Shown here: piece after piece, positions 3,762 to 46,230 of the stretch | Position numbering within the stretch: the first letter of the stretch is position 1 | Layout of the letters: each line of letters begins with the position of its first letter | Source of the DNA: a virus | Taxonomy: Duplodnaviria > Caudoviricetes | Length of the DNA: 64,000 nt | IMG/VR virus record: IMGVR_UViG_3300046526_000553 | Span: 32,001-96,000 of that record | Strand: one strand, 5' to 3' | Made by a program: the position numbers and the translations under genes | Notes under the pieces: generated by a model | Seen by the model: only the letters and a program-made list of their open reading frames with translations | Told to the model about the DNA's origin: nothing | Database searches by the model: none

Positions 3762-6080
3762 TTATTTAGCTGAAGGTGCCAGTGCGTCATTAACGGCGCG
3801 AACAATTTCTTCAGCCTCTTCATCAGACAGATTGTCTGGGTCAACCATGGTGTCATCGGTCAGTTTAGGTTTCGATTCAGTAGTTTTTTCGTCTACAGCC
3901 TTATCAACAGTTGCCTTGCCATCTTCTGGTTTATCCTCTTCAGGATTTCCTTCGGGCGACTCTTGAGTGGTTGCATCCTTAGTTACTGTATCTTTATCAT
4001 CGCTGACCTTTTCAACTTTTTCGTCTACTGATGCTTTGCTCTGGTCTGCACCGTCAGTCGGATTTTCCTCTGACTTAACCTCGCCTTTAGCTTTCGTATC
4101 AGTAGCCTGTTCGGTTGGTTCAGGCGTATCTAATGAACTTGTTGATTCGTTGTCTGGAGATTTCTGCACGTCCAGTTGCTTACTGTCATTTTCAGAAGCG
4201 GGTTTCTTCGGTTTGCTTATACCATCATCACCAGGACCATCAGCTTTCGTAACGACATCTGAAATGGATTTAATATGTGAGTCCAGCCCTTTGGATTGCT
4301 TTGCAAGCATGTCTGCGTGAGCCTTCATGGTTTGCGCATGACCGCCCAAAGCGTCGGTGTGCATATCCAGTAGAGATTTCGTATCACTCAAATAATCTTG
4401 CACTGCTTTGAGGTGTGCCATTTGCGTTGGTGTCAATGCACCACCGCTATTACCCTCTGCTAAGTCTTTTTTCCCCATAAGTACATTGTCCTTTCGAAGC
4501 GCTTTACCTGTCAACACTTTTACCATAAACTGGGCAAATCGTAATTTTGCTTGAGGAGTATTCAAACTGCGAAGATTGGTCTGGACATATTCTCCATCCT
4601 GATTGTCTCCGTTTCCCTCATCATCGTCTTCATCATTGTATGTTCCGGCAGCCACTTTTTGTAGTAATGAAATAGTTTCAGATAATAATGAACCAAAATC
4701 ATCTGGTGATGTATCTTCGTCAAAATAGACATCACAGAATGCCCAGACAATTTCGAAGAAATCATTCATCTTACCCTGCTTCTCATCTTGGGCTGCATCT
4801 TCAGCTAATTCTTCTGCCACGCTACCTTTGGTATTGGATTCGTCTTTGACCTTAGATTCTGTCTTCACTTCGCTCTCCATTTCTTCAATGGCTTTTAGCT
4901 CAATTTCTAAATCTTCAACAGATTTCAACGGAGGAGCTGTTTCACCAAATTTCTTATAATATTTCTTCACCTGCGTATATACAGCTTGGCGGTCAGTACC
5001 TTGGACACCACCACGAGCCCCATTCAAAACACCCATAATAGCTTTGACAGCATTCCAGACAGCCACTAGCTTGTCATCACTGACAGTTGCAAACGGTAAT
5101 TTATAATCCCCCTGCTTGTCACCAGCACCATCGGCAACCCACATGAAAGCTTTCTTATACTTGCCAAAATCTATCTCACCATCTGCATTACTTGCCCATT
5201 TTTTTACTGCCGAAACAGCTGCGCCCTTATCCCAGGCAGTACCTTTATCTGCTAACGGCAGGCTAGATGAAATAGCGCCTTTGATTTCTTTATCGGTAGT
5301 GTCTTCTTTCTTATTCATAGCTTTCTCTACCGCTCCTTCAATCAGGTCATTTAACATATCTAATGATTGCTGAGTTGATGTAACTTTTTCAGGAGCTTTT
5401 GAAGCCACCTCAGCTACGACATCTTCGCCTCCTTCTACTGATTTATTCATATCCATGATTTCTTCTAGATTAGCAATCGTTTTCTGGAGCTTATGTTTTA
5501 ATTGTTTAGCATGACGGATATCCATATCGCCCATCTTATATGCCAACATCAAAGCTTGCGGATTAGCCGGTACGACAACAGCAGAAATCTCTAGTAATTC
5601 ACATTCTTTGAATGTATTGTTATCTATTTCAGCAGGCAAAAACCCCACTGAGAATGCAAACATGTATTGATTGCGGTAAAAATTCCAGATTAAATCTGCA
5701 AATTCGTACATACCTTGAGGGGGTGCTTGGTAAGTAAACTTCAGCACCCCATCTATTACACCTATCTCTACAGCTCTACCGACTGGTGGTTGGTAATAAT
5801 CATGTGCCCATGGGATAACCGGATTATTCTTGAAATTATTTAAATCCCATGTAGCCTGGTCAACTACCTCGCCCGCCCTATCTACAATCGCTGTTGAAGC
5901 AATTGCTGTGAAAGTACGGTTCTTATCATCAAAACTACCAAGATTGAAATTGATAGTCTGCATGATTTTACCGTGTGTATTCGGCACAGCTACCGGAGAA
6001 TCAACAGTTTTTTCCCACCAATTGCCAGCATCTTGCTGACGTGGCTTCACTACTGTTGATTCTAATACGGCTTTCGACAT
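3762..6080 (-). CDS. HK97-family prohead protease fused to an extra domain and an acidic scaffold-like tail
   Basis: ASTAIVDRAGEVV, NPVIPWAH, AFSVGF and ELLEISAVVVPANPQA motifs. Confidence 0.92.
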   Translation of the reverse strand: MSKAVLESTVVKPRQQDAGNWWEKTVDSPVAVPNTHGKIMQTINFNLGSFDDKNRTFTAIASTAIVDRAGEVVDQATWDLNNFKNNPVIPWAHDYYQPPVGRAVEIGVIDGVLKFTYQAPPQGMYEFADLIWNFYRNQYMFAFSVGFLPAEIDNNTFKECELLEISAVVVPANPQALMLAYKMGDMDIRHAKQLKHKLQKTIANLEEIMDMNKSVEGGEDVVAEVASKAPEKVTSTQQSLDMLNDLIEGAVEKAMNKKEDTTDKEIKGAISSSLPLADKGTAWDKGAAVSAVKKWASNADGEIDFGKYKKAFMWVADGAGDKQGDYKLPFATVSDDKLVAVWNAVKAIMGVLNGARGGVQGTDRQAVYTQVKKYYKKFGETAPPLKSVEDLEIELKAIEEMESEVKTESKVKDESNTKGSVAEELAEDAAQDEKQGKMNDFFEIVWAFCDVYFDEDTSPDDFGSLLSETISLLQKVAAGTYNDEDDDEGNGDNQDGEYVQTNLRSLNTPQAKLRFAQFMVKVLTGKALRKDNVLMGKKDLAEGNSGGALTPTQMAHLKAVQDYLSDTKSLLDMHTDALGGHAQTMKAHADMLAKQSKGLDSHIKSISDVVTKADGPGDDGISKPKKPASENDSKQLDVQKSPDNESTSSLDTPEPTEQATDTKAKGEVKSEENPTDGADQSKASVDEKVEKVSDDKDTVTKDATTQESPEGNPEEDKPEDGKATVDKAVDEKTTESKPKLTDDTMVDPDNLSDEEAEEIVRAVNDALAPSAK

Positions 6081-24538: not shown

Positions 24539-25246
24539 CTAAATACTGTCGGCTATTATATTATGTGAACCACAGTCAGCGCATTTGAAAACTGCTCCTT
24601 TACCGTGCTTACCAGAGCGTAACTGTAGATTACTTATATCATTATTCTGCTTATTACCATCTTTATGATGAACCGTCTCATGAGTTTCAAGCTTACGTCC
24701 TAAAAATTCTGACATGACTGCTCGGTGTTCCATCATCTGCCCAGATTGTCGGTCGGAATATTCAGGTCTATAAATTATTATATAACCACCGTTATCCACT
24801 CTTTTCTGCCTATTCTTATCATGGTGTTCGATATAACACGACCGAGTACAAAAACGTTGCGTTTTATTTTTCTTTGGATGAAAACTATTGCCACAATTAA
24901 CACAATCTCTATCTGCATACGTTCGTGGCTTACCTGGCACACATTCGGAGCTACAGTATTTAGAAGATTTTCGCCAAGGGGCAAACATCTTACCGCAAGT
25001 TGAGCATGCTCGTTCAGGCATTCTAGGTCGATGTTCACCTGCGCATTTTCGTGTACAAAACATTGTATCTTTATTCCTAGGATGAAACATAATGCCACAA
25101 CCAGGGCATCTCTTATCTTCTAGCTTCCTTGGTTTGCCACCAGGCCAGCATTCACGACTACAGTACCTAGCAAATTTATTAGGTGGTCTAAATAATTCGT
25201 CACATGTCTCACATTTCTTATCTTCTAATGTTCTCGGTCTAGCCAT
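24539..25246 (-). CDS. HNH endonuclease with four CxxC..F.P..CSxxC repeats
   Basis: MEHRAVM..LGRKL..ETVHHKDGNKQNN motif. Confidence 0.85.
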   Translation of the reverse strand: MARPRTLEDKKCETCDELFRPPNKFARYCSRECWPGGKPRKLEDKRCPGCGIMFHPRNKDTMFCTRKCAGEHRPRMPERACSTCGKMFAPWRKSSKYCSSECVPGKPRTYADRDCVNCGNSFHPKKNKTQRFCTRSCYIEHHDKNRQKRVDNGGYIIIYRPEYSDRQSGQMMEHRAVMSEFLGRKLETHETVHHKDGNKQNNDISNLQLRSGKHGKGAVFKCADCGSHNIIADSI

Positions 25247-25436: not shown

Positions 25437-26312
25437 TTACCCATTTGAGTTTATCGTGAGTGAGTAAGTAAACTGAATGCTATCACTTGCGTTGACATTG
25501 ATGGCCGAGAATACTTTGTGGTCCCACATAATAGGACGTATAGTATAAGCCTCGGTAGTACCAGGTGTTGCCCCAGCCGTACCATCGGCATCTTTATACC
25601 AAGCCACAATAGTAAATACTGAGGTAGTATTCGATGTGACAAATCCCCATACAGTTGTAGTACCGGCTTCAACAATGTGTTGTTGCTGTCCTTGCACGGT
25701 TGTAGAACTTGCTGTCAAAGGCGTACCTGTTACAGTCCCCGAAGTAGCGCTTGTAGCAGTAAACGGAGTACCTGTAGTTGCTGAAACTGTTGACTGTGTA
25801 ATCAGACACCATTCAGTAACCGCTTCAGAACCCGTATAGCTGATTGTTGCAACTGTCTGATACTTCTGTAGTACTGCACCAGATACAAGGCTTTGTGTTC
25901 CTGCTATAGGAGTCTGGCCGCCTTGTGCGGAAATTGTATTAACCTTGTAATCAAATTGCGTAGCTGCTGTTGCGCTTGTTCCTGTAAAATGCCAGTTAGC
26001 TAGTTTCAATGTATTAATAGCTGCAGCTGAAGGAGAAGCTAGGTTCCAGTCATTAGCTAATGCCAATACTCCCACGTTGGTTACAACACCAGGTCCTAGG
26101 TCAATTTCAGTATCTTTACCAATACGATAATTGTCCAGCCAGTTCAAGCTCATCACCTTAGTAGCAGGTATTGCCTCACCGTTACGAATGACCTTAGCTT
26201 TAAGGTTTGTCTCAAAGAAACTACCTGCGCTGAATCCACGTCCAGCTGAACCGAACCGTGAAGTTGCTACACCAAGCTGACCTAAGAAAGGCAGATTGAA
26301 TATTTTACCCAT
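25437..26312 (-). CDS. putative virion structural protein
   Basis: C-terminal FSAINVNASDSIQFTYSLTI is typical of phage fibre-associated proteins. Confidence 0.55.
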   Translation of the reverse strand: MGKIFNLPFLGQLGVATSRFGSAGRGFSAGSFFETNLKAKVIRNGEAIPATKVMSLNWLDNYRIGKDTEIDLGPGVVTNVGVLALANDWNLASPSAAAINTLKLANWHFTGTSATAATQFDYKVNTISAQGGQTPIAGTQSLVSGAVLQKYQTVATISYTGSEAVTEWCLITQSTVSATTGTPFTATSATSGTVTGTPLTASSTTVQGQQQHIVEAGTTTVWGFVTSNTTSVFTIVAWYKDADGTAGATPGTTEAYTIRPIMWDHKVFSAINVNASDSIQFTYSLTINSNG

Positions 26313-26544
26313 TATTTTCCTCCTCTGCTACTGCAGCTACTTCTTCAGGAGCAGTTGGCTCTTCTGCCGGAACTTCACCCCCAGACTCATCAGTTACTTC
26401 GACCAAGCCAGGGTAATTTGCAAGAACAACAGGCGGATGATAATCCGTTGTTACACTTAGCTGTTCACCTGGTTTTACGTCACCAATCCCAACAATCGAT
26501 AGTGCTTTTGAACCCGTATTTTTATAAATCCTTGTGGTTGCCAT
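26305..26544 (-). CDS. hypothetical protein
   Basis: 79-aa ORF coupled to 25437..26312. Confidence 0.6.
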   Translation of the reverse strand: MATTRIYKNTGSKALSIVGIGDVKPGEQLSVTTDYHPPVVLANYPGLVEVTDESGGEVPAEEPTAPEEVAAVAEEENNG

Positions 26545-26710
26545 AAATTACCCTCAAAATTATCTATGCTTCTATTAAAAGAGTACATAAGGAGTGTAAT
26601 ATCTGACAATAGATAAAATGCGGAAATGTGTTCGAGGAGTTGATTTTTGGATGGTGTTGGTGTATAATTAGTTTACTGCTTTCAGAAGTGAAGTTTAGGC
26701 TTCCATGCGA

Positions 26711-26785
26711 GGAATAGCAGGCGCGTCAAGTCGCGTCCAGACGTGTTGCGTTGAGGCGAGTCATGTCTTGCCCCGGCAAGTCAAC
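26711..26785 (+). repeat. solo pentamer-periodic unit (AGCAGGC + 12 x NNG(T)Y) with its own promoter
   Basis: gcgtc aagtc gcgtc cagac gtgtt gcgtt gaggc gagtc atgtc ttgcc ccggc aagtc. TTGATT-17-TATAAT at 26640-26668. Confidence 0.7.
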
Positions 26786-26827
26786 CAACTTATACAGGGA
26801 ATCGTGAGAAATTGCGGTTCTCTATAA

Positions 26828-29368
26828 TTATCCAACGACTTCAGATAAATCCTTAAGCTTAAATGGGATAACAGCGCATCGACCGTGCGGATGCTCTTCT
26901 GGAAAATCACCCGGAGATTGACGAACCATGTCAGCATAAGGAATACATTTCGGACAAGGGTCGCTAGCTGTTTTCCATATATAACTATCTACCATACCAC
27001 TATCTTGCCATACGGCAAAATTACTGTATTGTAATGCCCTATTAGCTTCGGTTATTGCTATTCTTTCAGCTCTATATCCAATGGCAGCTCCATAAACATT
27101 CTCTACTCTATCAGCCAATTCTTGTGTTGTTTCAGAAGCATTAATACCTTCATTCAGGGAAGCACGCAGTTGTTTCGTTGTTTCTGAATCAACGCCTTCA
27201 AAGACAATATCCGTGTGCTGCTGGAAATATTTATCAACCTTACCGGTTACATCTCTATAATCCACAGGTTCTGCTGGGGCAGGAGCATTATAACCATATC
27301 CTTCCGGGTCATTTATGAGTTTTGCCCCCAGACTGCCTCCACTAGTGGTAGTGCCTTTATAAATTGGAACCATATCCTTTTTCCAAGCAGCTAAACTTGC
27401 AACAGGGTCAAATAAATCATTTAATTTATTCTTATTTTCTTTCTTAGTTGCCTTCTGTAAGGCTTTTGTGCCGAACATAAATCTGGCAGACACATTATTC
27501 AGAACTTCACCTTTTTGTTGTTCAAATCTTAGCTTCGAAGCTCGCATAAATCTAACTTCGAACACATCTGCAGTATGTTGACGTTCTTTTAGATAGTTTT
27601 CAGTAACAAATTGTTTGGTAAATAATAATGTATATTTTGGCTTGGGTTTATTGGCTTGAGCCTTTTCTGGCTCAGTGACTAAAAAATCGCTATCGCCTCG
27701 ACTTTCTACCTGTGCTATCGGTTTAGGAAAAGCAGGTAATGAATCAACTTTGACTTTTTCAACTGGTTTTGATATGCTCCGAACTGCACTTGTGGCATCA
27801 GATGCGGCTGAACCACTGTCTGGCACGCCTGTAGATAAGCCTGTACTCGTCGTACTCCCAGCCGTATCTTGCGCATCTGGTGTATCTCCCCCTTCATCAG
27901 ACTCTTCCATTTCATTGCTGGTTTCTCTTGCCTCCGAAGGGTCTTCCTGCACATCTGCAGGTCTTCCTGATGGTACTGGCTGGGCTGAGACAGCTCCTAA
28001 AGGCAACAAATTAGCTGGTACGAATATCTGATTTCCTCCCGCAACAGGGAGGTCACCTCGTCGAGCTCTGATTTCGTTTATGGTTGCAAAACCAGGATTA
28101 TTTGTCGTCCCCAGAGAAGAAACATTGTCTTTCAATACTTGAGCCGTATCCTGTGGCACTGGGTCAGTAAAGCTAACCAATAGATTTTCACCATTTTCAT
28201 AGTCTGGAGCCAAATCCATCGTAATTCTATTGACAAGTCGCTGCATTCGTATTCTAATTCTCTTGCTGAAAATATATTCGGCCGTGTCTGCGTTGGCTCT
28301 GCTCATGCTTTCATCAAATCCAGCCAATGACTTAGGCACGCCGAACAAAGATAGAATCATATCCCTGTTGAAATTACGTCCTTTCAGGAACTCCATATCC
28401 CGCTGATTAATCTGAAGATTTTTAAACTGCAGACCTCCAGATAGAATAGCTGTACGATGTGAATTAACAGCCCCACCATAAGTATTCATCCACTCATCTT
28501 TCAACCTTTTGAAAACTTTCTCATCAATCTGTTCATCAGTCGTTAAGAACCCATCAGGCATTGCCGTGTTATAAAAGAATCTTTGATTGAAAATGGCTGC
28601 ATGGGTGTCTCCATCAATGGTGGTAGAGCCTGCCATAACCGCACTGTAGCCATGCCTGAAGTCCATAGGATTACCGTATTTGTGGTGAACAACATCTTCA
28701 GGATTTAAAGGGATTTGCTTGCCATTTGTAGTATAAACATAACCAACTATAAAGTGCTTTTGGTCAGGCACCACAGCTACCAGGTTTGGTAGTAACGGCC
28801 ATAATTCAATTGGTTTCTTTTTCTTATCTCTGACCACGAACCAATAGGCATTACCCGTTAATTCCAGATGCAAAAAACATATTTCTAGGAACTCGTTTTT
28901 GCTCATACTGGCATTTGGATTATTTAGCAAATCCAAAAGCGGATGATTATCTAGTTCTTCAAGTGCCGTCACGCCTTTCTGAATCTTAATCTGTCCACCT
29001 TTAGTTTCAAGGTAAGTCACCTTTTTATTAGCATAGAGAGCAGCTTCCTTGGGAAATTCAATTAATTTCTGGCTTAAAGCCATATTATTTAATTTGCCTC
29101 GATTCAAAAATAACCGTAGGTCTATAGCTGCCGATTGGTCAGCCACCATCTTGGCAGCAATATATACCCAATCCCGATAAGCCATTAATTGCTGTCGTTC
29201 ATTATTAAAACTGGAGAAAGCTGGATTCCATGAATTAGCCCCCATAATGGAGCTTGCTGCATCACTCGGGGTCGTATAATCCTTGTTTTGAAGATTGGGA
29301 AGCGTTGTTGATTTGTGGTCTACTCGTTCATAACCGAAATTTGTGAGTGCTTTATCGAAAAATCCCAT
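26828..29368 (-). CDS. portal protein (HK97-like) fused to a C-terminal MuF/gp7-like head morphogenesis domain
   Basis: HPLLDLLNNPN, LELTGNAYW, FGVP and TINEIRARRG motifs. C-terminal RAERIAITE...CPKC...HPHGRC. Confidence 0.92.
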   Translation of the reverse strand: MGFFDKALTNFGYERVDHKSTTLPNLQNKDYTTPSDAASSIMGANSWNPAFSSFNNERQQLMAYRDWVYIAAKMVADQSAAIDLRLFLNRGKLNNMALSQKLIEFPKEAALYANKKVTYLETKGGQIKIQKGVTALEELDNHPLLDLLNNPNASMSKNEFLEICFLHLELTGNAYWFVVRDKKKKPIELWPLLPNLVAVVPDQKHFIVGYVYTTNGKQIPLNPEDVVHHKYGNPMDFRHGYSAVMAGSTTIDGDTHAAIFNQRFFYNTAMPDGFLTTDEQIDEKVFKRLKDEWMNTYGGAVNSHRTAILSGGLQFKNLQINQRDMEFLKGRNFNRDMILSLFGVPKSLAGFDESMSRANADTAEYIFSKRIRIRMQRLVNRITMDLAPDYENGENLLVSFTDPVPQDTAQVLKDNVSSLGTTNNPGFATINEIRARRGDLPVAGGNQIFVPANLLPLGAVSAQPVPSGRPADVQEDPSEARETSNEMEESDEGGDTPDAQDTAGSTTSTGLSTGVPDSGSAASDATSAVRSISKPVEKVKVDSLPAFPKPIAQVESRGDSDFLVTEPEKAQANKPKPKYTLLFTKQFVTENYLKERQHTADVFEVRFMRASKLRFEQQKGEVLNNVSARFMFGTKALQKATKKENKNKLNDLFDPVASLAAWKKDMVPIYKGTTTSGGSLGAKLINDPEGYGYNAPAPAEPVDYRDVTGKVDKYFQQHTDIVFEGVDSETTKQLRASLNEGINASETTQELADRVENVYGAAIGYRAERIAITEANRALQYSNFAVWQDSGMVDSYIWKTASDPCPKCIPYADMVRQSPGDFPEEHPHGRCAVIPFKLKDLSEVVG

Positions 29369-29507
29369 TATGCCCCTATTTGTCCTTCTAGTATATCTGC
29401 ATTTATAATAGCTTACTCCTTACACTGTTGTCCAAAATTCGAGTTGCAATTTGAATAAATTAATGTTTCAATGGGAAAACAGTATATTTTTTAACAAGAG
29501 GGAAGGT

Positions 29508-29783
29508 ATGAGAATTCCTATTACACCATTGAAAGACCAGGTTCTAACCAAGGCAAAAGAAAAACAAACAAAAACCGCCAGCGGTTTGTATATCCCTGAC
29601 AGCGCTGCAAAAGATTCTTCAACAGCTGAAGTTTTAGCTGTGGGTGAAGATGTGAAAGGCATTGAAGTTGGTGATTATGTTATTTACACCAAAGAATATG
29701 ATACTACTGAAATTGAGATTGAGACCGAAAAATACAAACTCATAAAAGCCGAAAATATAATAGCAAAGGTTGAGGGGAATTAA
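29508..29783 (+). CDS. groES: co-chaperonin GroES
   Basis: PLKDQVL..KTASGLYIPDSA..VLAVG motif. Start at ATG 29508. Confidence 0.95.
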   Translation: MRIPITPLKDQVLTKAKEKQTKTASGLYIPDSAAKDSSTAEVLAVGEDVKGIEVGDYVIYTKEYDTTEIEIETEKYKLIKAENIIAKVEGN

Positions 29784-29787
29784 ATAC

Positions 29788-31407
29788 ATGAGCGGTAAAA
29801 AGATTTTCTATGGCGATGATGCACGCCAACGAGTACTTGCAGGAGCCAAAATCGTCCACGATACAATAGCAGGAACATTGGGTCCCCGTGGGCAGAATGT
29901 CTTACTCGGAAAACATGGTAGCGCACCCATAATTACTAAGGATGGCATAAATGCAGTTAAGTCTATCACTATCGATGACATTGACGATGAAACCCTTGGG
30001 TATAACGTCGGTATTGAACTAGTTAAAAGTGCTTCAGGGTCAATGGACAAGGTTGGTGATGGCTCAACGACTGTTGCCATCTTAACCTACCACATACTGA
30101 ACGAAGCTAATAAATTAATCGCAGCAGGCTATAATCCAGTCGAACTTCGTAAGGGAATTGAAAAGATTTCTGAATCCCTAATAAAAAGATTGGATAAATA
30201 TAGCGAAGATATCAGTGATAACTCAGAGAAAGTAGCCCAGATTGCCACTATTTCATCAGGTGACGCCGAGGTAGGTAAGCTTATCGCTAATGTCATTAAA
30301 AGCATTGGTGCTGATGGTACAGTCACTGTCGAACCCGGCCAAGGCTTTGGCATGGAACATGAGATAACTGAAGGCTACACCTTTAACAAAGGTTATGCCA
30401 GCCCATTTATGGCTACTAATCAAACCACGATGGAAGCTTCCTATAAAAATGTTCCTGTTTTGGTAACTGATGCAAAGATAACTTCAGCTCAAGATATTAT
30501 TCCTCTACTTGAGTCCATGAATTCCGAAGGCAAACATGACCTCGTTATTATTGCTGAAGATATTTCTGGAGACGCCCTTGGAATGCTGATTTTTAATAAA
30601 GCTAAGGGAGCCTTTAACACGGTTGTTATCAAAGCGCCTTCATTTGGAGACCGTCGCCAACAACTACTCGATGATATAGCTATCATTACGGGTGCCACCT
30701 TCATCTCATCCGAACGTGGTCAATTGCTATCTAAGGCTGAAATATCTGATTTGGGTACCGCCAAGCAGGTTATTGTATCAGCAGATAAAACGACTATCAT
30801 TGATGGTCAGGGTGCGCCAGAAGACATTCAGAACAGAAGCGATGAGCTCGATGCTCTTGTCAAAAAAGCAGGCAGTGACTATGATAAAGAATTCCATGAA
30901 CACCGTCGTTCCTCATTACATGGTAAAGTAGCTATCATCAGGGTTGGCGGTACCACCGAAACAGAGATTGAAGAGAAGAAATTCCGAGTTGACGATGCTG
31001 TTGCAGCAGCTAAAGCAGCAGTGAAAGGCGGTATTGTACCCGGAGGAGCCATCACGCTTGTCAATGTTGCCTCAGATTATGTTGATACAAGCATAAATGA
31101 AACTACTGAAGACCGTATCGTGCTAAATGCAGTTGAGCAACCATTCCGTATCCTACTGCAGAATGCAGGATTTAATCCAGATATTTGGCTACAACAAGTC
31201 AAAGAAAAACGTGGCTGGGGTGTAGACGTTAGGGATTTAGGCGTTTTAGTAAACATGAAATCCGCAGGGATTATAGACCCAACCGATGTAACTCGTAATG
31301 CACTACAATTTGCAACTTCAATAGCAGCCACCGCTATCACCACAGGTAGTATGATTGTGGATATCCCTGAAAAAGAAGAGCTTAACCCACAAGCTCAACT
31401 GGCTTAA
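29788..31407 (+). CDS. groEL: chaperonin GroEL
   Basis: TLGPRGQNV, ITKDG, GDGSTT, KAPSFGDRR, GGIVPGG and GIIDP motifs. Confidence 0.96.
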   Translation: MSGKKIFYGDDARQRVLAGAKIVHDTIAGTLGPRGQNVLLGKHGSAPIITKDGINAVKSITIDDIDDETLGYNVGIELVKSASGSMDKVGDGSTTVAILTYHILNEANKLIAAGYNPVELRKGIEKISESLIKRLDKYSEDISDNSEKVAQIATISSGDAEVGKLIANVIKSIGADGTVTVEPGQGFGMEHEITEGYTFNKGYASPFMATNQTTMEASYKNVPVLVTDAKITSAQDIIPLLESMNSEGKHDLVIIAEDISGDALGMLIFNKAKGAFNTVVIKAPSFGDRRQQLLDDIAIITGATFISSERGQLLSKAEISDLGTAKQVIVSADKTTIIDGQGAPEDIQNRSDELDALVKKAGSDYDKEFHEHRRSSLHGKVAIIRVGGTTETEIEEKKFRVDDAVAAAKAAVKGGIVPGGAITLVNVASDYVDTSINETTEDRIVLNAVEQPFRILLQNAGFNPDIWLQQVKEKRGWGVDVRDLGVLVNMKSAGIIDPTDVTRNALQFATSIAATAITTGSMIVDIPEKEELNPQAQLA

Positions 31408-33263: not shown

Positions 33264-34106
33264 ATGGGTAAGATAAGCAAACTTGCTTTGCAAGTAGGTA
33301 CTTCCGTATTTGCAGTTGCAGCTATCACAACAGGTGCAGTTGCTGCTACAGCACCGTCACAAGGATGGCAGTTCAATAATAGTAAACAAGATAACTATAA
33401 GAGTGATAATCACAGTAGCGATAATCATAATAAAGATAATAATCGCAACGACAATAACAATGGTCGTAACGATAACAAAGACTATAATAAGGATGAGCAT
33501 AAATCTAACAAGGTTTATACCTCAAGCTACACGTATAAAAACGACAATCATAGTAGTAGTTATGACAAACATAGCTATAAAGTAACTAGCTATCACAAGA
33601 GCAAACATGATAGTAACTGTGGTTGCAGCACCAATGATAGCCACGGGTATAATAAATTTGGCTTTGACAAATATGGGTTCAATCGTCAAGGTTACGACAA
33701 GCATGGCTTCAACCGCTATGGGTTCGATTGCTACGGGTTTAATCGTCAGGGTTTTGATAAAAACGGATATAATAAGAGTGGTTACGATAAAGACGGATAT
33801 AGCCACCAAGGCTTTGACAAATATGGGTTCAATAAAGATGGCTATGATTGCAATGGTTACGGCCGCGATGGGTATAATAAGCAAGGCTACAATAAAAATG
33901 GCTGCGACAAATACGGTCGGTCAAAATACAACCACCGCAGTGAACACTTCAAAGAAGTTTCATACACGCACAAAGATGACAACCACAAACCTTGCCACCG
34001 GAATGATGGTGAAAAAAGCAAGAACTGGGATTCCCACAAATCTTACAACAAAGATTCTCAGTACAGTGATAACAACCAACAGGACAACTACAACAAAGTT
34101 GACTAG
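33264..34106 (+). CDS. secreted low-complexity protein with G(Y/F)(D/N)xx pentapeptide repeats
   Basis: Signal-peptide-like N-terminus and about 18 GYxx/GFxx repeats. Terminator hairpin follows at ~34121-34152. Confidence 0.75.
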   Translation: MGKISKLALQVGTSVFAVAAITTGAVAATAPSQGWQFNNSKQDNYKSDNHSSDNHNKDNNRNDNNNGRNDNKDYNKDEHKSNKVYTSSYTYKNDNHSSSYDKHSYKVTSYHKSKHDSNCGCSTNDSHGYNKFGFDKYGFNRQGYDKHGFNRYGFDCYGFNRQGFDKNGYNKSGYDKDGYSHQGFDKYGFNKDGYDCNGYGRDGYNKQGYNKNGCDKYGRSKYNHRSEHFKEVSYTHKDDNHKPCHRNDGEKSKNWDSHKSYNKDSQYSDNNQQDNYNKVD

Positions 34107-43265: not shown

Positions 43266-43333
43266 TTTAATGACCTCCTTTAATGATATTATCCCTTATT
43301 ATACACCATCATTTCGTTTTGTGCACCACCAAA

Positions 43334-43837: not shown

Positions 43838-44408
43838 GCCATGCCTTGCCTGCCTTTCCGTACCAACAAGCGCTACCTCGACCGGACACAACTCAACTCG
43901 TCTTGAGGCGACCGGACTCGTGGCGACTCGCCTGCCATGGCTGGACGCTTCGAGACTCGCGATGACCGGACCGGACATCCACGACTCGCTCAGACCTAGC
44001 GCTCCCAGTCACATCTGGACTCGCCGGGACGTGGCTTGACTCACCTGCACTACCTTGATTATGCGGAAACCGGTCATGACAAAACCTATCTCGAAACGTC
44101 TCGTCTCAACACAACATGCCTGCCTTGAGGAGACTTGACGCACCTGGACCTAACTCGACTCGGCTCAACTCGTCGTGAGGAGACTTGACCGGACACTCCT
44201 AGCCTGCCATGAATTGACTCACCTTGACCCGTCAGGAGATGACTTGACCGGACGCACCTCGTCTTGCCTGCCCTGCCTGGACAACCCCAACTTGCCACGA
44301 AAAGAGGTGTCTGAACTTATTGCGACTTTCCCAGCCTGCTATTCCACTCCATGTCATGCCTAGACAATCGCACCGGGACATGACGTGACGAAACGTGACT
44401 CGCCTGCC
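43838..44408 (-). repeat. array of about 7 units, each GGCAGGC followed by 5-nt-periodic NN-GTC pentamers
   Basis: GCCTGCC-like delimiters on + at ~43848, 43930, 44043, 44118, 44202, 44266, 44334 and 44402. Confidence 0.8.
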
Positions 44409-44426
44409 CTGTCTAAGTTATTAGAC

Positions 44427-44996
44427 CTAGACCGGAACAGCTACAAATCCATTAGTCGTACTAATATCTTCGTTTTTACTGTTCTTATCAGCTCCCTTAA
44501 TCCGAGCACGATTTGAAGTTTTCTTCGCCGGTTTAGATATAGCCACATCTTCTTTCTCTTTGGCTTCATCGACCGCTTGCCACACTTTAGCTAATTCAAC
44601 AATATGCTTGTATTTATTCTCAACATTAGTTAATTCAACTAAAGCAGTTTTTAAAAACTGTTCCCGTAAGTCTGGACGTTCCAAAACATCTGTCGTCCAT
44701 CGAAAGCCTCCACCTGCGTCTCTGTCAATATCCAGAGAGGTTAGAACTCTAACTTCGGTATCTAATTGTTCAGAATAAACAGTAAAGCTTTTGATAAGCT
44801 GCCTAGCTTCTTCCAGATTCCAACGATTAGCAGCTTCATCTTTATCCCAAGTGAAAAATTTATGAAGTGGGCTTGATGGCTTTCTAGCTGATTCAACAAG
44901 TGCTTCTTCTTTTAACAAACCATTAGCATCGATGTTCATTAACCTGCTAAATTCAGACTGAACTTCTGCCGTTAGTTTTTTCGGAAAACTATTCAT
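44427..44996 (-). CDS. conserved phage protein paired with the RAMP-like gene
   Basis: LVESARKPSSPLHKFFTWDKDEAANRWNLEEARQLI. Flanked by repeat units on both sides. Confidence 0.7.
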   Translation of the reverse strand: MNSFPKKLTAEVQSEFSRLMNIDANGLLKEEALVESARKPSSPLHKFFTWDKDEAANRWNLEEARQLIKSFTVYSEQLDTEVRVLTSLDIDRDAGGGFRWTTDVLERPDLREQFLKTALVELTNVENKYKHIVELAKVWQAVDEAKEKEDVAISKPAKKTSNRARIKGADKNSKNEDISTTNGFVAVPV

Positions 44997-45080
44997 GTCT
45001 TCTCCTTATATTATTAATATTATTATTGAAAGGCTGGCGCTGCTGGAGTATAAACCATATTGATTTATTAATCAAGCTTT

Positions 45081-45151
45081 GCCAGCCTTGCCGTGACGAA
45101 CCACGACTGGTCTTGTGGCATCTGGACTCAACAAGACTCGACTCGCCTGCC
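45081..45151 (-). repeat. single pentamer-periodic unit between the two genes
   Basis: GGCAGGC gagtc gagtc ttgtt gagtc cagat gccac aagac cagtc gtggt tcgtc acggc aaggc. Confidence 0.75.
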
Positions 45152-45188
45152 AAACATTGCCTTGACTTATAAGAAATAGTAAATTAAA

Positions 45189-45884
45189 CTACTTCTTAAC
45201 TTTGCTTACCTTTTTAGCAGGTTCCTTACCATCACTAGGGCTTGGGCTCTCGACATCAAATGTGCCAAAACCCAAACCAGCTGATGCTCGTGAATCAGGT
45301 CTTCCTTCACCTAGACCAACTTGCAGACCAACTCGACGGAGCAAATTTAACATATCTTCCAATGAAAATTGGTCTTCGTCAAATTTTATGACTGGCAAAG
45401 CATACCATTCACGCCACAAAGGACGAACACGAATGTCAAAAACACCTGTTGCATTTCTTACAGCAGCTTCGTTTCTTTCAGGTTCCCCGTAGATGCGTAC
45501 TAAAGGTTGCCCATCAACTTTGTCGAAACCTTGAGCTTTAACAAAGATGGAAAGCTTTGCGCGAGTCATTGTGAACCCAGTCAAACGACATGCACTGATG
45601 GCTGCAGCTCGAATAGATGAAGCTGGAATCCCAATCCAACCCTCAATGCTCTTATGCATTGCTTGGTGGTAATCATCATCGAAGTTACGGGCTTCCCGTA
45701 CTTTCTTGGCTCCTTGCTTAGTTGAGCCATCCATTTTGCTCATCATCGCTTGCATAGCTTTTTGGCTAAAGCGAGATTGCATATACGGTGCATTACCTTT
45801 CAATTTAACCTGCACCGCTTTTATACGAGGCGCTGAAATTGCAACAGCGACCTCTTTTTTAGTAGATTTTTTTGGACTTGGCAT
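45189..45884 (-). CDS. RAMP/Cas7-like protein
   Basis: N-terminal beta strand + KGNAPY, IPASSIRAA helix, and C-terminal Gly-rich loop VGLGEGRP..GLGFGTFDV. Confidence 0.65.
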   Translation of the reverse strand: MPSPKKSTKKEVAVAISAPRIKAVQVKLKGNAPYMQSRFSQKAMQAMMSKMDGSTKQGAKKVREARNFDDDYHQAMHKSIEGWIGIPASSIRAAAISACRLTGFTMTRAKLSIFVKAQGFDKVDGQPLVRIYGEPERNEAAVRNATGVFDIRVRPLWREWYALPVIKFDEDQFSLEDMLNLLRRVGLQVGLGEGRPDSRASAGLGFGTFDVESPSPSDGKEPAKKVSKVKK

Positions 45885-46230
45885 ATAACTCTTCTCCTTT
45901 ATTGTTAAGTTTATGCTTTATCCACTATACACCAACGTAACAATTATGTCAAGTCATTTTTTTGTCTACATTTTAGTTCAATACTTGGACATGAACCACA
46001 TATTTCAGTTCATTATTTATTGAATTATTAATATACAAAATTGACAACAGGACAATAATTAATACGAATAACCCTAAAATAATAAGCTCCCGCAAATCCT
46101 TCTTCACCAACATCCTTTGATGATATTGTACAGCTTTTTGTTTCATTTTAATTTATAAATGTGGTTAAATTATTCCCATGAGTAGAGACAAGCCAAAACG
46201 AGAAAAAAAGAAGCCTAAGAAACCAAAGAG

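Follow-up and report, generated by a model that had tools for sequence, protein, structure and literature searches.

The interval 26640–26823 on the plus strand of the phage sequence analyzed here is very probably a self-contained gene for a single vrRNA of approximately 150 nt, which belongs to the phage's own VIPR system. The window, that is, the whole stretch of 64,000 nucleotides under study, corresponds to bases 32001–96000 of a single-contig virus record of 143,778 bp, and carries 17 tRNA genes and a head module encoded on the minus strand. Unless the genome is named, positions refer to the window. The initial annotation had proposed a stand-alone RNA gene belonging to the same system as a distant RAMP-like gene. 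This proposal is supported by the pentamer scaffold with its GCAGGC start, by the promoter class, by a strand-specific hairpin, and by the RAMP-like gene product, which is the sole Vipr homologue in the genome. We infer from these features that the unit is transcribed and that its RNA is loaded by Vipr.

The VIPR/vrRNA system itself is already known: this CRISPR-related, RNA-guided DNA silencer was first described in preprints of 2026 (bioRxiv 10.64898/2026.04.26.720920, 10.64898/2026.04.26.720927). It consists of Vipr, vap, and vrRNA, and the characterized type II systems are those of the Escherichia phage SUSP1 and of a Pseudomonas fulva prophage (10.64898/2026.04.26.720920, 10.64898/2026.04.26.720927). 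The published vrRNAs contain 9–16 GGY/NN repeats (bioRxiv 10.64898/2026.04.26.720920). According to the VIPR literature, one Vipr protomer covers each repeat and sequesters the GGY triplet, while the NN bases pair with double-stranded DNA, one base being skipped between the dinucleotides; this binding silences transcription. Three features are new here: a guide located away from vipr in a VIPR-positive phage, its bounded build, in which promoter, tract, and hairpin follow one another, and a scaffold relaxed to G-U-Y.

Setting and anatomy of the probable guide unit

The unit is located in a 283-bp gap between the portal gene (26828–29368, minus strand; PHROG portal match with E = 5.6e-81) and a 79-aa ORF (26305–26544, minus strand), and is orientated antisense to the surrounding head genes. 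The promoter (26640–26668, plus strand) is composed of TTGATT (26640–26645), a 17-nt spacer, and TATAAT (26663–26668), includes the phage-specific extended −10 block GTTGGTGTATAAT, and precedes the 12-mer GGAATAGCAGGC as initially annotated. The 5′ leader (26675–26717, plus strand) extends from the transcription start, predicted from the position of the −10 box, to the first scaffold triplet. A hairpin can be folded in this leader, but its stability does not exceed that of shuffled sequence (z = −0.8).

The 12-mer GGAATAGCAGGC (26711–26722, plus strand) ends in the GCAGGC junction motif. Its identity to positions 44334–44345 on the minus strand, claimed beforehand, was confirmed, and these two sites are the only exact copies in the window. 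The minus-strand copy belongs to a unit junction of the guide array beside vipr (43875–45150, minus strand). The identity of 12 nucleotides alone is not significant (BLAST E ~2); the 12-mer counts because both copies sit directly before a pentamer tract.

The guide tract (26718–26782, plus strand) comprises 13 in-phase pentamers of the form NNG(T/G/A/C)Y. The 12 pentamers noted initially, with G at position 3 and a pyrimidine at position 5, were found after the 12-mer, and the count rises to 13 if CAGGC is included; all of them carry G at position 3 and C or T at position 5. The decoded variable dinucleotides of the guide are GC AA GC CA GT GC GA GA AT TT CC AA (AA).

The hairpin that had been described behind the pentamers is located at 26796–26823 (plus strand). 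It consists of 12 bp, four of them G-U pairs, with a GAAA tetraloop, and ends 5 nt short of the portal stop codon. Its folding energy of −13.7 kcal/mol (z = −4.7) was reached by none of 200 shuffled sequences. Owing to the four G-U pairs, the minus-strand RNA of the same segment reaches only −4.9 kcal/mol, and this asymmetry argues for the plus strand as the functional one. As a U-tract is absent 3′ of the hairpin, the 3′ end of the unit is uncertain. The coding potential of the plus strand at the unit is limited to a 40-aa ORF crossing the tract. Beyond the hairpin, the plus strand holds nothing other than portal antisense sequence, so RNA is the only plausible product. No Rfam family matched at the unit.

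The distance of 17 kb originally given between the unit and the RAMP-like gene holds approximately for the closest array edge; the gene itself is 18.4 kb away. Two further observations concern the neighborhood of the unit. A gene similar to HNH homing endonucleases (24539–25246, minus strand; PHROG E = 1.7e-23) is located 1.4 kb from the unit in the head/tail module. GroES/GroEL-like genes (29451–31407, plus strand) diverge from the portal gene, a layout that is kept in relatives with 60–73% portal identity over the queried region.

Promoter class, guide arrays, and the Vipr protein

The promoter of the unit fully matches a phage-specific class with the sequence TTGAyxTTT-N8-GTTGGTGTATAnT, a 17-nt spacer, and approximately 22–30 copies. 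If up to one mismatch is allowed, 30 occurrences of the 13-nt core of this class are found (roughly 2–3 expected), and a proper −35 box at a distance of 17 nt is present in most of the copies. The promoter of the vipr operon, CTTGACATAATTGTTAC GTTGGTGTATAGT (45924–45953, minus strand), belongs to the class; 39 nt separate it from the 231-aa ORF downstream. Both promoters of a distant guide array (genome positions 124,920 and 125,700) are also members. Further copies were located in the window at 43298 (minus strand), 48488 (minus strand), and 48944 (plus strand), and in the genome at 106126, 108276, 109803, 112076, 114324, 115201, 123297, and 124412. Members of the class precede vipr, each of the three guide loci, and numerous genes at 106–125 kb. 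Since vipr, the distant array, and the unit are under promoters of a single class, synthesis of the RNA is expected to accompany that of the protein.

A genome-wide scan for five-base periodicity, as suggested in the initial annotation, singled out the unit and two array loci, at which the period-5 spectral power lies above the 99.9th percentile; one additional site (33672–33733) is barely above it. In a sliding scan of the shuffled genome, the power stayed below the values of these sites. The run of 13 pentamers at 26718–26782 is the longest unbroken one in the 143,778-bp genome, for which approximately 2.5e-8 runs of such length are expected from base composition.

One of the array loci is that beside vipr (see above); the distant array lies outside the window (genome 124,984–125,870, plus strand). 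Both are split into units of 53–84 nt, each opening with GCA-GGC and continuing with NNG(D)Y pentamers. In the array by vipr, one unit (45050–45188, minus strand) is located between vipr and a 189-aa partner gene and is followed by a small hairpin (TTGATT-AATA-AATCAA); about eight units are found downstream. The arrays of this phage are punctuated by GGCAGGC, and these GGC-A-GGC junctions fit the description of "staggered" arrays in the VIPR paper, in which the units overlap by 1 nt. Across the 161 pentamers of the phage, position 3 is G and position 5 is C or T in 100% of the cases, position 4 is T in 50%, G in 31%, and A in 15%, and positions 1–2 are near random.

The guide unit and the array units have the 5′ GCAGGC junction and the pentamer scaffold in common, and the 12-mer is shared with one array unit. 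A conserved 3′ tail was seen neither in the unit nor in the arrays of the phage, and the sequence of the 3′ hairpin is unique. Terminal units in this phage may usually end in a guide tract with a hairpin behind it. None of the array units, many of which are out of phase, is as regular as the guide unit, and the regularity of the latter argues against decay.

The presumed partner protein is encoded by vipr (45189–45884, minus strand), a lone Cas7-like RAMP of 231 amino acids. No match to the protein was found in Pfam, and its best sequence match in the PDB was the SUSP1 Vipr protein (36pp_D, E = 0.0028) over the G-loop GxGxxRP. A structure model (AlphaFold2, built with 34 homologues) reached a mean pLDDT of 81.6, and its top Foldseek matches were Csm3/Cas7 subunits with a probability of 1.0. 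In total, 2445 homologues of the 231-aa ORF were collected. In the VIPR literature, W178 of SUSP1 Vipr is described as stacking on the second scaffold G. This position aligns with a glycine that is invariant in the clade of our phage. The glycine alone does not account for the relaxed second base, because relatives with a GGC scaffold also have it.

By extension of the published VIPR mechanism to this unit, Vipr protomers, one per pentamer, would sequester each G-D-Y triplet, and the resulting filament would present 12–13 variable dinucleotides. These would pair with double-stranded DNA having the same dinucleotides with one skipped base between them, and the bound filament would block transcription of the target.

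Relatives, target searches, and alternative explanations

Close relatives of the phage were found neither in the GenBank phage collection nor in IMG/VR, either by DNA or by portal protein. In 80 related vipr loci from IMG/VR, GGC-NN arrays punctuated by GGCAGGC are present on the strand of vipr, and owing to this conservation the GGCAGGC junction is regarded as a feature of the clade. The second scaffold base in these relatives is G, with T in only 78 of 5784 cases, versus 50% T in this phage; mixed GGY/GAY/GTY triplets also occur in the relatives with the closest Vipr proteins, which are 74–81% identical. Downstream of the portal gene, the unit is absent in four relatives with 60–73% portal identity (residues 250–480). 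An insertion boundary cannot be drawn, because the genes downstream of the portal gene in these four relatives are not homologous to those of this phage.

A distal unit of similar build was identified in IMGVR_UViG_3300046812_000216, a complete related phage of 67.7 kb with terminal repeats. It consists of 11 GGY-NN pentamers and a 6-bp hairpin (bases 5518–5572, minus strand) and lies approximately 20 kb from the vipr gene of that phage, within a gap that separates virion structural genes and in antisense orientation. No self-target of at least 19/22 was found for this unit, nor a match in the neighboring genes like that between our unit and the portal gene. In six further related records, four of which are rated complete, long units are found only beside vipr or not at all. 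Since one related phage has a distal unit and these six records do not, distal units are occasional in the clade.

Potential targets of the guide were scored according to the published one-base-skip rule over 26 NN positions with a threshold of 80%. No significant target was detected in the phage's own genome, IMG/VR, JGI metagenomes, GTDB genomes, 401 Patescibacteria genomes, and the 80 related vipr loci. The scans of IMG/VR, GTDB, and JGI used exact seed windows, so that targets with scattered mismatches could be missed. The best matches reached 21/26 in IMG/VR, 23/26 in GTDB genomes, and 22/26 in JGI metagenomes. The numbers of seed matches equal the chance expectation, and a binomial estimate gives hundreds of 22/26 sites per terabase, with approximately 25/26 needed to beat chance in collections of terabase size. 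In the 401 Patescibacteria genomes, no match of at least 23/26 was found. Within the 0.95 Mb of the 80 related vipr loci, no match exceeded 18/26, a score below the maximum of the shuffled guides; neither the vipr genes nor the guide arrays of these relatives therefore appear to be what the guide is directed against. In the phage's own genome, the best match was 19/26 at a skip of one base, and shuffled guides usually peak at 18–19.

Two groups of matches were rejected as targets. The seed matches in IMG/VR fell into unrelated genes (small terminase, minor tail protein, baseplate hub). Five metagenome matches at 22/26 correspond to the catalytic-Asn motif YGNMSSATCAVA of FabH-like (KAS III) genes on the opposite strand. 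They were attributed to chance, as these genes are chromosomal in DPANN archaea (Pacearchaeota, Woesearchaeota), the seed matches occur at chance number, and the phage has no such gene. The DPANN FabH-like genes have the motif YGNMSSATCAVALDEA in common, and their DNA differs at third codon positions only (five contigs). The other guides of the phage gave no outliers against the collected loci at skips of 0–3, so that the skip rule cannot be calibrated for this clade. The target of the unit is most likely a competing mobile element outside the collections searched.

The best match in the genome (28260–28297, minus strand) is weak and possibly due to chance. Its position is in frame within the portal gene and coincides with the conserved motif ANADTAEYIFSK, which raises an unlikely explanation: the portal gene of rival phages could be what the guide attacks, the guide being maintained next to the phage's own portal allele, which is mismatched and therefore immune. 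If so, the attacking guide and the resistant allele would pass on as a linked pair, in a manner comparable to homing endonucleases, which exclude the markers of a rival. The match is the best of the whole 144-kb genome, on the coding strand, and falls on the most conserved motif of the portal protein (SRANADTAEYIFSK). The same motif was the best match in most of the top-scoring sequences among 170 portal homologues, with an upper bound of 21/26, and in a motif-guided scan some IMG/VR portals (RANAEVADYIFAKR) reached 21/26 (81%), above the self score. Compared with shuffled guides at in-frame portal positions, p was 0.005, a post hoc value that becomes approximately 0.02 after about four hypotheses. 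Apart from the post hoc nature of this test, the ceiling speaks against a portal target, since no match above 21/26 was found among the 170 homologues or the pattern-scan matches. Furthermore, three guide codons (CA, GA, and CC) clash with near-invariant portal residues, and the distal unit of the related phage lacks a match to its neighbors. That the unit is instead a dead copy, a stray array unit moved by recombination and out of use, is very unlikely. Its absence from the same gap in relatives, the lack of a target in the searches, and the junction 12-mer common to the leader and one array unit, which fits copying, would be in line with such an origin. However, decay should cost the phase, as it has in many array units, whereas this unit, with 13 uninterrupted pentamers, is the most regular in the genome and retains an intact, full-consensus promoter of the phage class and the strand-specific hairpin (z = −4.7).

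Two regulatory functions were also considered, and each has only a slim chance of being correct. An antisense or convergent transcript might tune the portal operon, either through transcriptional collision or because it pairs with the polycistronic mRNA of the head genes, the pentamers being secondary. The promoter does point at the portal stop codon, antisense read-through into the portal gene is possible at a hairpin lacking a U-tract, and the head mRNA crosses the tract because the gap contains no minus-strand terminator. Such a function leaves the 13 phased G-D-Y units and the array-type GCAGGC start unexplained, and the distal unit of the related phage has the same build of pentamers plus hairpin in an unrelated gap. 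Alternatively, the RNA might serve the phage as a decoy for its Vipr or as a regulator of it, either titrating the protein or diverting it to a site that is harmless or repeated. SUSP1 is affected in this manner by published solo vrRNAs of satellites, and the failure to find a competitor target is compatible with it; however, no repeated target was detected (19/26 at best in the own genome, no match of at least 23/26 in the Patescibacteria genomes), and there is no evident reason for a phage to blunt its own system from a vipr-type promoter. A binding site for a TRAP-type ring protein, unrelated to the RAMP gene, would be suggested by the spacing, since triplets are separated by two bases. TRAP-binding RNAs carry (G/U)AG triplets with spacers of 2–3 nt, 11 of them in the trp leader, and the 12–13 triplets at 5-nt spacing resemble this arrangement. 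This was rejected as extremely improbable: a TRAP-family gene (PF02081) is absent from the genome, with a Bacillus control genome being positive, the triplets are GUC, GGC, and GAC rather than GAG or UAG, and similar tracts fill the arrays beside a Vipr gene, to which they belong. A vrRNA gene of the phage's own system thus remains the preferred interpretation of the unit.

Significance and comparison with known systems

As this phage shows, guide genes can be scattered across the genome of a VIPR-positive phage instead of all being placed beside vipr; each of its three loci is provided with a promoter of one class. Surveys confined to the flanks of vipr will consequently undercount guides. 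The unit represents a clean natural guide that is bounded by a promoter and a hairpin, not by neighboring units, and it could help to establish what marks the 5′ start (GCAGGC) of units in the "staggered" class, which has been little studied. The mechanism of VIPR as published is left unchanged by these observations.

Like the published vrRNAs, the unit consists of tandem 5-nt repeats with a purine-G…pyrimidine scaffold and two variable bases, and its 13 repeats exceed the minimum of 4 required of a vrRNA and fall inside the published, typical range of 9–16. A vrRNA is expected to be expressed as a small RNA of about 100 nt that copurifies with Vipr; the promoter class and the strand-specific hairpin lend indirect support to such expression of the unit. 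As in published VIPR systems, the guide is phage-borne and a lone Cas7-like protein is encoded in the same genome. Natural VIPR guides have no self-target with an NN match of at least 80% (VIPR paper), and neither has the unit, for which the maximum in its own genome is 19/26 (73%). The units of this phage open with GCAGGC, as do the "staggered arrays" of the VIPR paper. The scaffold G-(U>G>A)-Y differs from the published GGY in that the second base is mostly U and not G, and the YNNGN form of this phage is not among the published alternatives (NNNGG, YNNNG, NNNNG). Type II vrRNAs are defined by a conserved pseudoknot tail, whereas the unit lacks a conserved 3′ tail. Also unlike the published VIPR vrRNAs, it is separated from vipr by 18 kb and is preceded by a promoter of its own.

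With the crRNAs of class 1 CRISPR systems, VIPR shares the principle of a RAMP filament on a periodic guide whose bases are flipped out at a fixed step. This step is 5 nt with three sequestered bases in VIPR, compared with 6 nt and one base in class 1 crRNAs. In contrast to class 1 CRISPR, there is no repeat-spacer array and no Cas6, Cas1, or Cas2, and the target is read with a gap.

Further published counterparts are the solo vrRNAs of F5 satellites and of VIPR-null phages of the SUSP1 family (Lopez et al. 2026, bioRxiv 10.64898/2026.10.15.759431). Both they and the unit are single guides away from any vipr-vap operon with expression signals of their own. However, solo vrRNAs sit on elements without vipr and borrow the protein of another element, whereas vipr and the 189-aa partner gene are both present in the genome studied here. 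Solo vrRNAs have a 40-nt tail in common with their cognate arrays, while the unit and the arrays of this phage share only the 5′ junction motif. Predicted targets of solo vrRNAs include REP elements, vipr, other vrRNAs, and satellites; none was found for the unit in the collections searched. The unit is accordingly a distal unit of a VIPR-positive phage and not a solo vrRNA in the strict sense of Lopez et al. (2026).
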